DNA from: Escherichia phage vB_EcoM_NBG1
DNA: 64,000 nt
Direction: 5' to 3' (one strand)
Sequence record: MH243438.1
A program made the translations under genes and the position numbers. Below the pieces are notes generated by a model, which saw only the letters and a program-made list of their open reading frames with translations, had not been told where the DNA came from and searched no databases. This document shows positions 3,794 through 63,048 of this stretch, in pieces. How positions within the stretch are numbered: the first letter of the stretch is position 1; each line of letters begins with the position of its first letter.

Positions 3794-3817
3794 TCTTAAT
3801 TGATTAAATCTTATTTT

Positions 3818-3846
3818 GGGAGACTTCGGTCTCCCATTTTTGGTTT
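3818..3846 (+). terminator. Rho-independent terminator after gene 23
   Basis: Hairpin GGGAGAC-TTCG-GTCTCCC followed by a T-run. Confidence 0.8.
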
Positions 3847-7161: not shown

Positions 7162-7190
7162 AAAACGAAGAAAGGGGCCGAAGCCCCTTA
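7162..7190 (-). terminator. Terminator after hoc
   Basis: Hairpin GGGGC-TTCG-GCCCC with T-rich tail on the - strand, immediately after the hoc stop. Confidence 0.65.
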
Positions 7191-8333: not shown

Positions 8334-9002
8334 TTATTTTAATGTTACGAAAGAAGAATTACGAGTTTCACGAATTAGAACTGATCCATCGCGATTAATA
8401 TAATAAATTAAGCTAAATAATGTTTGGTGAGCAGAAGCGTGCACAAAACTGGTTGGGCGAGATTTCCAATCTGGGGTTTCGGCTATCCATTGATAAATCC
8501 ACCAAGGAACAGTAACATATCCTGGGCCTTTGCCTAATTTAATGAGTGTAGGACTAAAATTTTCAGGCAGAACAAATTTTACTTCTTTATTTACCTCTGG
8601 CTCAGGTTCTTTTTCAGATTCAACAACCTGAGTAATTGCTTCTTCGAATTTATCATGGTCGAATTCTTTTTCTTGTTCGACAACTTCTAATACTTCAGCT
8701 TGTTCTGTTGGAGAATCAAACAACAGAATAGCTTCTTCTTTAACTTCTTCGTTGGTGAAATTAACACCGTCCACATCATCTGCGGCAGTAATTAAATCGG
8801 TGATAGATAATCCATCAGTTTCAGGTAATGGTTCATCAGCCAGTGCGTTAAGAGCTTCTTCGATATCAATAACAATATTATCGAATGATTTTGTTTTCTT
8901 AACACTAATGCCAAATTGTTCCGCATATTCAAACAGTTTAGCTTTGGCTTCCTTTTTATCAGAAAGAGCACGTAACTCTTCAATATAGTCTTTATCGATC
9001 AT
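8334..9002 (-). CDS. inh: Inhibitor of prohead protease Inh
   Basis: 222 aa acidic protein next to hoc; size and position match T4 Inh. Confidence 0.8.
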   Translation of the reverse strand: MIDKDYIEELRALSDKKEAKAKLFEYAEQFGISVKKTKSFDNIVIDIEEALNALADEPLPETDGLSITDLITAADDVDGVNFTNEEVKEEAILLFDSPTEQAEVLEVVEQEKEFDHDKFEEAITQVVESEKEPEPEVNKEVKFVLPENFSPTLIKLGKGPGYVTVPWWIYQWIAETPDWKSRPTSFVHASAHQTLFSLIYYINRDGSVLIRETRNSSFVTLK

Positions 9003-9015
9003 GATATTTCCTCAT

Positions 9016-9023
9016 TATAAATA
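9016..9023 (+). promoter_or_regulatory. T4-type late promoter (TATAAATA) upstream of segE/uvsW
   Basis: Exact TATAAATA in the inh-segE intergenic region. Confidence 0.5.
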
Positions 9024-9051
9024 TAACTATATTTATTACATGGAAAAGAGT

Positions 9052-9783
9052 ATGTATCACTTTGTTTATGAGACCGTAAATTTAATCAATGGTAAAAAGT
9101 ACATTGGCAAACATTCTACAGAAAATTTAAATGATTCGTATCTAGGGTCAGGTGTTGCCTTAAATCGCGCTATCAAAAAATACGGAGAAGAATCATTTAA
9201 ACGTTCAATAATTAAACAATTTGAAACTTCCGCTGAAGCTTTAGAATACGAAGCTCAGTTAGTAACAGAGGATTTGGTCAAATCTAACGAGTATTATAAT
9301 ATGCGCCAAGGCGGTGAAGGTGGAAGGTATAAGTACACCGAAGCTGATAAGACTAAAATGTCTAATAGTGCTAAAGAACGAATAAAGAGGCTTGGTCATA
9401 ATCTTTTAGGAAAACACAGATCGGAAGAAACAAAAAGAAAACTATCTGAAACAAATAAACGTCGATACTCTGAAGACCCAACATGCCACGGGCGGTATGG
9501 TACAGGAAAGCCAAAGATTGATAAAATTAAAGGTCCTAAAAATCCTACAACTCTAAATAAAATTTGTGTTAACAACGGTAAAGAAAACAGATTTATATCA
9601 GCTGAGGACCCGATGCCTGAAGGATTTGTAAAAGGAATGGTCCAACTTAATAGAAAATCTAGAAAGGGCTGTGAAGTAAAACCTACGACCACCGGCAGAA
9701 TATGGGTAAATAACGGGGCTATAAATAAATTAGTAAATCCGTTATCCATCCCAGATGGATATGTTAAAGGCCGTTTAAGGTAA
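9052..9783 (+). CDS. segE: GIY-YIG homing endonuclease, SegE-like
   Basis: N-terminal MYHFVYETVNLINGKKYIGKH is a GIY-YIG motif; located between inh and uvsW as segE is in T4. Start set at ATG 9052 (purine-rich SD); the ORF is open from 9001, alternative ATG at 9040. Confidence 0.85.
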   Translation: MYHFVYETVNLINGKKYIGKHSTENLNDSYLGSGVALNRAIKKYGEESFKRSIIKQFETSAEALEYEAQLVTEDLVKSNEYYNMRQGGEGGRYKYTEADKTKMSNSAKERIKRLGHNLLGKHRSEETKRKLSETNKRRYSEDPTCHGRYGTGKPKIDKIKGPKNPTTLNKICVNNGKENRFISAEDPMPEGFVKGMVQLNRKSRKGCEVKPTTTGRIWVNNGAINKLVNPLSIPDGYVKGRLR

Positions 9784-9788
9784 TTATT

Positions 9789-11303
9789 ATGACAGATATT
9801 AAAGTACATTTTCATGATTTTAGCCATGTAAGAATTGAATGCGACGAAAGCGTGTTCTATGAATTACGCGACTTTTTTAGCTTTGAAGCCGATGGGTACA
9901 AATTCAACCCGCGTTACAAATATGGGAACTGGGATGGTAGAATTAGACTTTTAGATTACAACCGTTTGTTACCATATGGACTTGTAGGACAAATAAAAAA
10001 GTTCTGTAGCAATATGAGTTATTCTGTATGGATTGACCCTAAAATCTTTGAGACCGAAGACCTTACCAGGGAAGATTTTGACGCATGGCTTTCTAAACAA
10101 GAAATTTATTCAGGCAACGCCAAAATCGAACCACATTGGTATCAAAAAGATGCAGTATATGAAGGACTAGTTAATCGTCGTCGAATTTTAAACCTTCCGA
10201 CATCAGCAGGTAAATCACTAATCCAAGCACTTTTAGCTCGGTATTATCTAGAGAACTATGAAGGTAAAATTCTCATTATCGTCCCTACAACAGCATTGAC
10301 AACCCAGATGGCTAATGATTTTGTTGATTATCGCTTGTTTAGTCATTCGATGATTAAGAAAATTGGCGGTGGTGCTGATAAAGCAGACAAATCTAAAAAC
10401 GACGCTCCAATTATTGTTGGCACATGGCAAACGGTAGTTAAGCAGCCTAAAGAATGGTTCTCTCAGTTCGGTATGATGATGAACGATGAATGCCACTTAG
10501 CAACAGGCAAAAGTATTTCTTCAATCATCGCAGGATTAAATAATTGTATGTTTAAATTCGGTTTATCTGGCTCATTAAGAGACGGAAAGGCCAATGTAAT
10601 GCAGTACGTAGGTATGTTCGGCGAAATCTTCCGTCCTGTTAGCACGTCTAAATTAATGGAAGATGGACAGGTAACTGAGCTTAAGATTAATAGTATTTTC
10701 CTTCGTTATCCAGACGAATTCGCCACCAAATTAAAAGGTAAAACATACCAAGAAGAAGTTAAAATTATTACCGGACTAAAACGACGTACAAAGTGGATTG
10801 CTCAACTTTCAGTCAAATTGGCTAAGAAAGACGAGAACGCCTTTGTAATGTTTAAACACGTTACACACGGTAAAGAAATATTTGAAGCTATTAAAGAGCT
10901 TGGATACGAAAAAGTTTATTACGTATCAGGCGAAGTTGATACTGAAACACGTAACGCGCTTAAAGTCATGGCAGAAAATGGTAAAGGCATTATTATTGTC
11001 GCATCATATGGAGTATTCTCTACCGGTATTTCAGTCAAGAATCTTCATCATGTTATTTTTGCCCATGGTGTTAAATCAAAAATTATCGTACTTCAAACAG
11101 TAGGTCGTGTGCTTCGTAAGCATGGTTCTAAAGCTGTTGCTACAGTTTGGGATCTCATCGATGACGCAGGTGTAAAACCTAAATCATTAAATACTAAAAA
11201 GAAGTATACTCATCTTAATTACTTGTTAAAACACGGTATTGATCGTATCCAACGTTACGCTGATGAGAAATTTAACTATGTAATGAAAACAATTAATTTA
11301 TAA
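9789..11303 (+). CDS. uvsW: UvsW RNA-DNA and DNA-DNA helicase
   Basis: 504 aa; MTDIKVHFHDFSHVRIECDE... and SF2 helicase motifs (LPTSAGKS Walker A, DECH box) match remembered T4 UvsW. Confidence 0.95.
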   Translation: MTDIKVHFHDFSHVRIECDESVFYELRDFFSFEADGYKFNPRYKYGNWDGRIRLLDYNRLLPYGLVGQIKKFCSNMSYSVWIDPKIFETEDLTREDFDAWLSKQEIYSGNAKIEPHWYQKDAVYEGLVNRRRILNLPTSAGKSLIQALLARYYLENYEGKILIIVPTTALTTQMANDFVDYRLFSHSMIKKIGGGADKADKSKNDAPIIVGTWQTVVKQPKEWFSQFGMMMNDECHLATGKSISSIIAGLNNCMFKFGLSGSLRDGKANVMQYVGMFGEIFRPVSTSKLMEDGQVTELKINSIFLRYPDEFATKLKGKTYQEEVKIITGLKRRTKWIAQLSVKLAKKDENAFVMFKHVTHGKEIFEAIKELGYEKVYYVSGEVDTETRNALKVMAENGKGIIIVASYGVFSTGISVKNLHHVIFAHGVKSKIIVLQTVGRVLRKHGSKAVATVWDLIDDAGVKPKSLNTKKKYTHLNYLLKHGIDRIQRYADEKFNYVMKTINL

Positions 11304-11328
11304 GGGCTTCGGCCCTTAGGAGATAAAA

Positions 11329-11559
11329 ATGGTACTTGAATTTAAACAATTTTTATACGAAGCATCTATTGACGAATTCATGGGTAAAATTGCTAGTTGT
11401 CATACCCTAGAAGGGCTTGAAGAATTGGAAGCTTATTATAAGAAACGTATAAAAGAAACGGAATTAAAAGATACAGATGATATTTCTGTCAGGGATGCCT
11501 TAGCAGGTAAGCGTGCCGAACTTGAAGGCGATGATGAGGATGTGGAAGAAGACTTCTAA
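11329..11559 (+). CDS. uvsW.1: UvsW.1 small acidic protein
   Basis: 76 aa ORF 25 nt downstream of uvsW in another frame; same size as T4 UvsW.1. Confidence 0.8.
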   Translation: MVLEFKQFLYEASIDEFMGKIASCHTLEGLEELEAYYKKRIKETELKDTDDISVRDALAGKRAELEGDDEDVEEDF

Positions 11560-11560
11560 T

Positions 11561-11600
11561 TAAAAAAAAGGCCCGACCTTTTTGGAAGGGCCAAAAACCA
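11561..11600. terminator. Candidate bidirectional terminator between uvsW.1 and uvsY.-2
   Basis: A-run, GGCCC...GGGCC stem, T/A runs, between convergent genes. Confidence 0.45.
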
Positions 11601-11618
11601 TAGGCAAAAAAGGTAACA

Positions 11619-11786
11619 CTATAGTAAAAGTTGGGTTTCGTTCAATTGCTCTTCTGAACTTTCTGAAACCGGCAATTGTTGTACATAATTATAACAAGGA
11701 CCAGGATGTGCTGGGCCTTTGTCTGTTTCAACAACCAATGCAGAATCGATTGGAGTTTTACAGACAACACAAATCTTATCTGACAT
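11619..11786 (-). CDS. uvsY.-2: UvsY.-2-like small protein
   Basis: Hand-translated about 55 aa ORF (MSDKICVVCKTPIDSALVVETDKGPAHPGPCYNYVQQLPVSESSEEQLNETQLLL) with SD AGGAGG upstream; below the ORF-track size cutoff. The track's + ORF 11582-11788 is rejected. Confidence 0.6.
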   Translation of the reverse strand: MSDKICVVCKTPIDSALVVETDKGPAHPGPCYNYVQQLPVSESSEEQLNETQLLL

Positions 11787-11818
11787 GATTGCCTCCTAAG
11801 TTGAAATTACATATCTAT

Positions 11819-12043
11819 TTATACAACTCTCATATGCATATCAATGCCCATATCTTTAGAATAAAAATATTCATCAAGATATCCGGCAAATTTTCCTTTA
11901 ATATAAAGGACATCTTCACCACACGGATGGTCTGCCAGGATACGAATATCCTGACGACGTAGACGATACTTTTCCATTAGGAATTTAATTTCAGTTTCAA
12001 ATTCTTCGTCATTATTAAAGGCATCTTCAATTGAATAACGCAT
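11819..12043 (-). CDS. uvsY.-1: UvsY.-1-like protein
   Basis: 74 aa ORF directly downstream of uvsY, stop/start coupled. Confidence 0.65.
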   Translation of the reverse strand: MRYSIEDAFNNDEEFETEIKFLMEKYRLRRQDIRILADHPCGEDVLYIKGKFAGYLDEYFYSKDMGIDMHMRVV

Positions 12044-12456
12044 TATTGCCCCGCTTCAAATTCTCGCATATCCTGGATATGTTTAAGTGCAAAACTACGA
12101 GACTTAACTGCGTCAAGTGCACCACTACAGAACTCAAGTAAAATTCCCCAGTATTGTAAAGTAGTCTCTATTTTAAGCACATCTTTATCTGCAGCCAGGA
12201 CAGTTTTCATTTCAGATTTCTCGTATCGGTCCATACTGAATTCATCACCGTCACCTCGTCCCGAGTAGTAGTCTAATCTTGCTTTTAGAGCAGTTTTCTT
12301 CTGAGTCTCTATACGCAACATTTCTTTACGAATAAATGAGTGCTTACGTAGCCATTTGCTGTATAACTTAACATTATTCGCTGTCTCATATTGCAACTTT
12401 GTTGTATCAATAGCTAAGTCTGCGTCTAACTCTTCCTGTAAATCTTCCAGCTTCAT
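12043..12456 (-). CDS. uvsY: Recombination mediator UvsY
   Basis: 137 aa from internal ATG at 12456; MKLEDLQEEL...LRIETQKKTALKARLDYYSGRGDGDEFSMDRYEKSEMKTVL matches remembered T4 UvsY. The track ORF is extended upstream to 12519. Confidence 0.92.
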   Translation of the reverse strand: MKLEDLQEELDADLAIDTTKLQYETANNVKLYSKWLRKHSFIRKEMLRIETQKKTALKARLDYYSGRGDGDEFSMDRYEKSEMKTVLAADKDVLKIETTLQYWGILLEFCSGALDAVKSRSFALKHIQDMREFEAGQ

Positions 12457-22365: not shown

Positions 22366-22390
22366 CCAAAAAGAGCCCGAAGGCTCTTAA
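22366..22390 (-). terminator. Terminator-like hairpin upstream of alt
   Basis: - strand AGAGCC-TTCG-GGCTCT followed by TTTTT. Confidence 0.55.
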
Positions 22391-26690: not shown

Positions 26691-26725
26691 AATTTCCTCA
26701 ATGGGAGCCGAAGCTCCCAGTTAAA

Positions 26726-27634: not shown

Positions 27635-27662
27635 GCACAAAAGGGAGACCGAAGTCTCCCTA
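27635..27662 (-). terminator. Terminator after the 59 aa basic ORF
   Basis: - strand GGGAGAC-TTCG-GTCTCCC followed by TTTT. Confidence 0.7.
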
Positions 27663-36183: not shown

Positions 36184-36209
36184 AATAAAGTGGGACCGAA
36201 GTCCCGTCC

Positions 36210-42518: not shown

Positions 42519-42543
42519 TCAAAAGGGAGACCGAAGTCTCCCA
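42519..42543 (-). terminator. Terminator after gene 32
   Basis: - strand GGGAGAC-TTCG-GTCTCCC plus T-run, 6 nt after the gp32 stop. Confidence 0.75.
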
Positions 42544-50843: not shown

Positions 50844-50870
50844 TTAGGGAGACTTCGGTCTCCCATTTTT
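50844..50870 (+). terminator. Terminator after gene 35
   Basis: GGGAGAC-TTCG-GTCTCCC followed by ATTTTT. Confidence 0.8.
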
Positions 50871-54715: not shown

Positions 54716-54717
54716 GG

Positions 54718-54742
54718 AGAAGGGACTTCGGTCCCTTTTTAT
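54718..54742 (+). terminator. Terminator after gene 37
   Basis: GAAGGGAC-TTCG-GTCCCTT followed by a T-run. Confidence 0.75.
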
Positions 54743-59137: not shown

Positions 59138-59255
59138 GTTTTGTGAGGAAAAAATGCACAAAAGGGAGCTTCGGCTCCCTAATCATGTTTGTCCAACCAA
59201 TACAGCCAAATCACTAGTGCAGCTATTGCACCGAGAAATCCTAAGGCTAGGGCAC

Positions 59256-60585: not shown

Positions 60586-60726
60586 TCACCATATTAATGA
60601 ACGAATAACCATTATAACATCTGAAATGAAAAGCACTACTTGGATTAGTCCAAACATCACACCATAGTACAGAACCGTAAGCAACAACAAGAGCCCGAAG
60701 GCTCCTGCTAAGATTTTCTTAATCAT
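60586..60726 (-). CDS. Small hydrophobic membrane protein (not in ORF track)
   Basis: Hand-translated 46 aa (MIKKILAGAFGLLLLLTVLYYGVMFGLIQVVLFISDVIMVIRSLIW); start overlaps the stop of the upstream small ORF (TAATG). Confidence 0.4.
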   Translation of the reverse strand: MIKKILAGAFGLLLLLTVLYYGVMFGLIQVVLFISDVIMVIRSLIW

Positions 60727-63024: not shown

Positions 63025-63048
63025 GAAAAAAGGGGACCGAAGTCCCCA
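63025..63048 (-). terminator. Terminator after rIIB
   Basis: - strand GGGGAC-TTCG-GTCCCC followed by a T-run, directly after the rIIB stop. Confidence 0.75.

Follow-up and report, generated by a model that had tools for sequence, protein, structure and literature searches.

The question raised by this locus is whether the helicase gene uvsW and the short reading frame downstream of it, uvsW.1, are two genes or the two halves of one interrupted gene. In the window, meaning the whole 64,000-nt stretch of DNA analyzed (Escherichia phage vB_EcoM_NBG1, sequence record MH243438.1), uvsW stops at a TAA (11301 to 11303) that is followed by a GC-rich palindrome, and uvsW.1 starts 25 nt past this stop in the +1 frame, in which a TAG is present at 11317 to 11319. 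These coordinates, taken from the original prediction, all held. That prediction left three explanations side by side, namely two genuine genes, a fault of assembly at the hairpin and a site of recoding. The analyses described here identify the locus, almost certainly, as the ordinary, genuine uvsW-uvsW.1 two-gene unit of T-even phages.

The uvsW gene occupies positions 9789 to 11303 of the + strand and encodes a 504-aa SF2 DNA helicase. Three Pfam domains were detected in the product, all scoring above the curated cut-offs: UvsW_N (PF21241, 154.6 bits), ResIII (PF04851, 64.3 bits) and Helicase_C (PF00271, 32.1 bits). Alignment with the T4 UvsW crystal chain 2OCA (E = 0) extended over residues 3 to 504 against 2 to 502, with a one-residue insertion in the protein of the present phage relative to the T4 chain. 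The chain and the 504-aa ORF share their final residue, both finishing with ...MKT(I/V)NL, which in this phage reads ...MKTINL and is followed directly by the TAA. The uvsW gene is, therefore, predicted to encode a complete SF2 helicase of the T4 UvsW family that terminates at 11301 to 11303. The uvsW.1 gene (11329 to 11559, + strand) starts with an ATG and encodes a helical 76-aa protein with an acidic C-terminus and F as its last residue. This protein matched the UvsW.1 domain of Pfam (PF11637) with 94.2 bits against a gathering cut-off of 25, the PHROG family phrog_1143 and, over its whole length (residues 1 to 76, E = 9e-40), the NMR structure 2JPN, which is of UvsW.1 alone. A Shine-Dalgarno (SD) sequence, AGGAG, is located at 11318 to 11322 of the + strand, directly 3′ of the hairpin and with the ATG 6 nt downstream, and its GGAG was found by base-level alignment to be kept in T4-type phages. 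On its sequence, uvsW.1 is an independent gene with its own AGGAG SD and ATG. In the phage and IMG/VR collections, the one fusion of the UvsW.1 domain to another domain occurred in a Vibrio phage and involved a C-terminal region that is unrelated.

An error at the hairpin, with the true sequence differing by plus or minus one base and encoding UvsW as one fused protein of ∼588 aa, would be in keeping with the tendency of GC-rich hairpins to produce sequencing artefacts. The phage is a Mosigvirus (RB69-like), and its closest records are ∼99.5% identical over 601 nt. Of 150 Mosigvirus records deposited by many laboratories, 148 matched the 81-nt junction (11270 to 11350) with at least 99% identity, and the junction of RB69 (AY303349) was base-for-base identical to that of the window. 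An identical error would have had to recur across laboratories and platforms, and the junction is, therefore, as far as sequence comparison goes, not an assembly error, contrary to one of the options in the original prediction. Two ORFs were, moreover, upheld by resequencing of T4 (PMC1524935), and the solved UvsW structure finishes at the same stop. Together with the comparison of loci described below, in which the split recurred in many genera with very different junction sequences, these data leave the error explanation with next to no probability.

Further support for an error had come from T4 itself, for which one sequence shows an error at exactly this hairpin that toggles between the fused and split states. 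The legacy T4 record (NC_000866.4 = AF158101.6) presents uvsW as a single 1764-nt CDS of 587 aa, in which the linker ISFGPLEKK corresponds to a translation of the hairpin and SD region, and the record's own annotation mentions "sequence discrepancies" at the uvsW stretch. Matches to the T4 junction were found in 499 Tequatrovirus records, of which 497 differ from the legacy version; only AF158101.6 and NC_000866.4 were at least 99% identical to it. Among the matches listed, 57 other single-piece rows, including T4T and a number of recent resequencings of T4, each measured 202 nt, compared with 201 nt for the legacy query. The legacy sequence reads AATTTA-ATAAGCTTCGGCCC where T4T, OZ209023, T6, RB69 and the window read AATTTATAAGGGCTTCGGCCC, the split version having been read base by base in two T4 resequencings, T4T and OZ209023. 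The discrepancy is confined to the 5′ arm of the stem, in which TAAGGG is replaced by ATAAG with a net change of −1 nt, and this loss of one base fuses the two frames into the 1764-nt CDS. The legacy error is most simply explained, given its position, by gel compression at the GC-rich hairpin. Nolan et al. (2006) reported that resequencing of T4 gave uvsW and uvsW.1 as two ORFs, that five T4-like genomes including RB69 all had two ORFs and that the UvsW of crystallography lacked the extra region (PMC1524935). The sequence of the window is, on these comparisons, correct, and the fused 587-aa UvsW is an artefact limited to the legacy T4 sequence. The original prediction had presented the T4 history as one in which a compression split a longer UvsW; the hairpin-linked sequencing problem was real, but the long UvsW was not the true state, the fusion being the artefact (PMC1524935).

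Junctions were compared at 75 loci containing both genes, one being that of the window, 15 coming from GenBank records and 59 from IMG/VR contigs, with 42 distinct junction sequences among them and some genomes being present in both the GenBank and the IMG/VR sets. In 74 of the 75 loci the uvsW stop was located 0 to 4 codons past the conserved C-terminus, the sole exception being the legacy T4 record. The alignment with other T4-like phages that had been proposed as a check thus also showed two ORFs with distinct products, and the two-gene option of the original prediction was borne out by this near-universal split, by the separate structures (2OCA and 2JPN) and by the separate Pfam families. 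All three stop codons, TGA, TAA and TAG, occur at the end of uvsW. Stop/start overlaps (ATGA, TAATG or GTGTTAA) were present at 26 loci, and gaps of 5 to 10 nt with an SD that spans the stop or follows it closely (e.g., TTTGAGGAAGTTATG) at 28; three loci had a 17-nt gap. The 25-nt spacer with a CUUCGG hairpin was observed at seven loci, in Tequatrovirus and Mosigvirus only. Four loci had a spacer of 44 to 55 nt in which a hairpin, unrelated in sequence, closely follows the end of uvsW, including a GAAA-loop stem in TG1, the stem sequences of the four lineages being unrelated. In the remaining six loci a whole gene was located between uvsW and uvsW.1. T6-type phages have an HNH/NUMOD3 endonuclease gene at this position and Bp7 has an HNH endonuclease gene; the insert is a phrog_681 endonuclease gene in an Aeromonas-65-like contig and encodes a membrane protein in a TG1-like contig. 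The junctions with an overlap or with the SD over the stop look like those of a translationally coupled pair. The series from overlap through SD-over-stop and hairpin spacer to inserted homing endonuclease genes illustrates a unit that is probably co-expressed yet separable.

The same comparison bears on recoding, by which a frameshift, readthrough or hop like that of gene 60 would yield some UvsW-UvsW.1 fusion. In the take-off of T4 gene 60, a sense codon is followed by a stop in a UUCG-type stem-loop and a matching codon is located downstream, at the far side of a 50-nt hop. The junction in the window has a superficial resemblance to this arrangement, as a UUA (11298 to 11300) is followed by the stop in the UUCG stem and then by a matching UUA (11316 to 11318). 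The frame of uvsW.1, however, contains stops at positions 11281, 11284 and 11317, which block any single +1 or −1 shift. Readthrough of the TAA would add GLRPLGDKNGT before a further stop, and a hop from UUA to UUA would put the ribosome back in frame 0, where only six codons (GDKNGT) precede a stop. The would-be landing codon is UUU, not UUA, in T4-type phages. Across loci the frame offset from uvsW to uvsW.1 is not conserved (2, 0 and 1 in 36, 20 and 18 loci, respectively, with the legacy T4 record left out), and a single recoded gene could accommodate neither a variable offset nor the insertion of whole genes. Recoding, the third option of the original prediction, is accordingly considered extremely improbable. 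Every route to a fusion by frameshift, readthrough or hop was followed on the sequence, and none worked. An occasional hop on the UUA-UAA-hairpin-UUA of Mosigvirus, adding GDKNGT to a fraction of UvsW, has a similarly minute chance of being real, and the six added residues could not, on this sequence, give a UvsW-UvsW.1 fusion.

The 25-nt spacer is, as far as its sequence can be read, non-coding, and its main feature is a C(UUCG)G stem-loop. Within 11290 to 11330 the assembly reads TAAGGGCTTCGGCCC. The palindrome GGGCTTCGGCCC at 11304 to 11315 forms the core, a 4-bp GGGC/GCCC stem with a UUCG tetraloop, and A-U pairs lengthen this GC stem to 7 bp, giving the intercistronic stem-loop UAAGGGC-UUCG-GCCCUUA at 11301 to 11318 of the + strand with the uvsW stop codon as the base of the 5′ arm. 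The centroid fold had an energy of −10.9 kcal/mol. In a 61-nt context the z score was −1.59 and 12 of 200 shuffles folded at least as well; the folding energy of the hairpin on its own is modest, not exceptional. The hairpin was identical in RB69, T4T, the recent T4 assembly OZ209023 and T6, and the five contigs detected by a pattern search of IMG/VR for a UUCG hairpin with NNNN arms had GGGC/GCCC throughout. In all of these sequences the stem is the same and so provides no covariation that would support selection on the structure itself. No Rfam family was detected in 8800 to 12200 at an E value of ≤1.

CUUCGG stem-loops are, as a class, clearly non-random in the 64-kb window. The motif CTTCGG was present in 31 copies against 16.7 ± 3.9 expected, a number reached by none of 100 shuffles, and 13 copies were located in stems of at least 5 bp compared with 1.7 expected from random flanks. 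Eleven of these 13 stem-loops start −3 to +23 nt from the stop of an ORF on the same strand. In four of them the next ATG follows 5 to 11 nt on (11301 and 54717 on the + strand, 26702 and 36192 on the − strand); a T run past the stem was absent at 11301 and 26702, while 5 T in 8 were counted at 36192. It was in T4 mRNA that UUCG tetraloops, which have extraordinary stability, were originally described (PMC4371310).

A match to the T4-type late promoter consensus, TATAAATA, is located at 9720 to 9727 of the + strand, 62 nt upstream of the uvsW ATG; it is a consensus match only, and the motif occurs in 16 copies in the whole window against 6.3 expected. No second + strand copy was detected between this site and the end of uvsW.1, and the two genes are, therefore, probably co-transcribed. 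Matches to sigma-70-like promoters in a scan of 8800 to 12200 were at or below shuffle expectation. Downstream of uvsW.1, a hairpin of the form GGCCC..CC-UUUUU-GG..GGGCC (11570 to 11592, assigned to neither strand; −15.5 kcal/mol) with flanking A and T runs lies between the convergent uvsW.1 (+) and uvsY.-2-like (−) genes. This hairpin was not called by the simple terminator scan. In a related record, both strands are annotated with terminators at this site, and a conserved bidirectional terminator downstream of uvsW.1 was described by Nolan et al. in 2006 (PMC1524935). The uvsW-uvsW.1 transcription unit is likely to end at the hairpin at 11570 to 11592.

We infer co-transcription, coupling and a role for the hairpin in this phage along the following lines. 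Both genes would be transcribed from the late-type promoter upstream of uvsW, with transcription ending at the 11570 to 11592 hairpin. A ribosome terminating at the UAA in the base of the stem would have to melt the junction hairpin, and melting would free the SD immediately 3′ of it, such that translation of uvsW.1 might be at least partly coupled to that of uvsW. Through coupling of this kind, production of the helicase would go hand in hand with that of its small partner. A further possibility is that the hairpin shields the uvsW message from 3′ exonucleases or weakly attenuates transcription. That the stop-in-stem hairpin makes translation of uvsW.1 depend on termination of uvsW is put forward tentatively, as a possibility with the balance against it. 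The 25-nt gap exceeds that of classic coupled pairs, and the SD is strong enough for independent initiation. Such a device is nevertheless more likely than a hop like that of gene 60.

The hairpin may instead have a mainly transcriptional role, as a leaky terminator or attenuator or as a 3′-end stabilizer, with uvsW mRNA exceeding uvsW.1 mRNA. This role would be compatible with two genes, and the coupling is the one element of the proposal to which it is a rival. Terminator-like features are present in the wider set of hairpins, as in 7 of the 13 CUUCGG stem-loops the 8 nt past the stem include 5 or more T, and TTTATTT follows the unrelated uvsW hairpin in two of the lineages with longer spacers (TG1-like and L040). 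One Mosigvirus GenBank record labels the junction hairpin a rho-independent terminator, on the basis of WebGeSTer alone, and a terminator at this point would, if efficient, also argue against simple co-expression. TransTermHP made no call at the junction hairpin in the annotated record. The tail 3′ of the stem, GGAGATAA, has only 1 T in 8, and no terminator-like site was found by the scan of 8800 to 12200, a U-rich tract being absent from this hairpin. Most lineages, having an overlap or a gap of 5 to 10 nt, have no space for a hairpin, and attenuation is, therefore, not a general requirement. A mainly transcriptional role is considered unlikely.

The split of uvsW and uvsW.1 has been known for ∼20 years, and the annotations of RB69, T4T and hundreds of further genomes show it. 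Nothing here is biologically new, and the value of the result lies in curation. In the copy that was searched, the T4 reference (NC_000866.4/AF158101.6) still had uvsW as the 587-aa fusion, which can mislead annotators and readers and did mislead the original prediction; the label "DNA helicase" carried by UvsW.1 in many records stems only from the legacy T4 fusion.

Compared with known systems, the two-gene unit in the window is closest to those of T4 (in the corrected version, T4T, HM137666) and RB69, which share with it the genes, their order, the spacer length of 25 nt and the TAA-GGGCTTCGGCCC hairpin. T4 differs from the window at three spacer positions, all 3′ of the stem, and a SegE-like GIY-YIG gene upstream of uvsW is present in the window and T4 but not in RB69. 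With regard to coupled pairs of the ATGA type, an overlap is present in 26 related loci and a 5- to 10-nt gap with the SD at the stop in 28, so that 54 of 74 related loci have a stop and start that overlap or lie within a few nucleotides together with an SD, whereas the window has a 25-nt gap with a hairpin. The pair in the window is orthologous to the overlapping pairs, but coupling here would need melting of the hairpin and re-initiation instead of an overlap. The likeness to T4 gene 60 is one of appearance and not of membership, as the hop would span 15 nt, compared with 50 nt in gene 60. The C(UUCG)G tetraloop hairpins of T4 mRNAs, reportedly the subject of work by Tuerk et al. in 1988 (recounted in PMC4371310), share a C:G-closed UUCG loop, a short GC stem and a location between cistrons or at the end of a gene. 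The junction hairpin is a typical member of this group, and its peculiarities are that the upstream stop codon is inside the stem and that the SD of the next gene adjoins the 3′ arm.

Among the loci compared, uvsW and uvsW.1 were parted by whole inserted genes in four lineages, the inserts being three different endonuclease genes and one membrane-protein gene. The endonuclease genes were an HNH/NUMOD3 gene in phage T6 (positions 1483 to 2175 of locus L002), an HNH gene in phage Bp7 (1413 to 2195 of L006) and a phrog_681 gene in locus L075 (1495 to 2418), and the membrane-protein gene was found in locus L054 (2145 to 2504). In T6, a remnant of a T4-type uvsW 3′ end, consisting of AAAACAGTTAATTTATAA and the hairpin, was kept downstream of the endonuclease gene, and the 3′ end of uvsW itself differed from the T4 type. 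This combination looks like the outcome of co-conversion during homing.

In the copy of the T4 reference record searched here, uvsW is still annotated as a fused 587-amino-acid CDS without uvsW.1 (L009, 2678 to 4441, equivalent to NC_000866.4, 112677 to 114440; also AF158101.6), the sole record of this kind among 499 Tequatrovirus records. UvsW.1 is named 'DNA helicase' in many other records, a label apparently handed down from this fusion. A UvsW.1 domain was also detected at the N terminus of a 295-amino-acid protein of Vibrio phage EniLVp02 (PP209424; L011, 2150 to 3037; PF11637, E = 8e-19), where it is fused to a C-terminal region with matches to PHROGs annotated as cytidyltransferase or DNA helicase. 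The neighbourhood of this gene contained a DnaB-like helicase/primase, and uvsW was not adjacent.

UvsW.1 of the window ends in an acidic tail, ...EGDDEDVEEDF (about 11521 to 11556), with F as the last residue. The terminal F was present in 10 of the 11 genera compared, and E74 was invariant. SSB proteins have acidic C-terminal tails with an aromatic tip, and the UvsW.1 tail may resemble these.

Besides the hairpin between uvsW and uvsW.1, the 64-kb window contained twelve C(UUCG)G-tetraloop stem-loops with stems of 5 to 11 bp, and CTTCGG was overrepresented approximately twofold. Three of these (26702 to 26719, −; 36192 to 36205, −; 54717 to 54740, +) resemble the uvsW/uvsW.1 hairpin in that each adjoins the start of the following gene. 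The others were located on the plus strand at 3817 to 3836, 50847 to 50864 and 59163 to 59180 and on the minus strand at 7172 to 7189, 22371 to 22388, 27642 to 27661, 42525 to 42542, 60685 to 60710 and 63032 to 63047. A same-strand stop codon lay just 5′ of the majority of the twelve, and some, with T runs, look like terminators.

A further hairpin (11570 to 11592) lies where uvsW.1 and a uvsY.-2-like gene converge, bordered on one side by an A run, with a T run on the opposite strand. It agrees with the bidirectional terminator that Nolan 2006 (PMC1524935) reports as conserved. A simple terminator scan made no call at this hairpin because of its internal 2x2 loop.

Upstream of uvsW, a 260-amino-acid ORF (9001 to 9783, +) encoding a SegE-like GIY-YIG/NUMOD3 homing endonuclease is flanked by inh (8334 to 9002, −) and uvsW, and the late-promoter-like sequence for uvsW, TATAAATA (9720 to 9727), falls within its 3′ end. 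T4 has a SegE-like endonuclease at the same position, whereas RB69 has none there.
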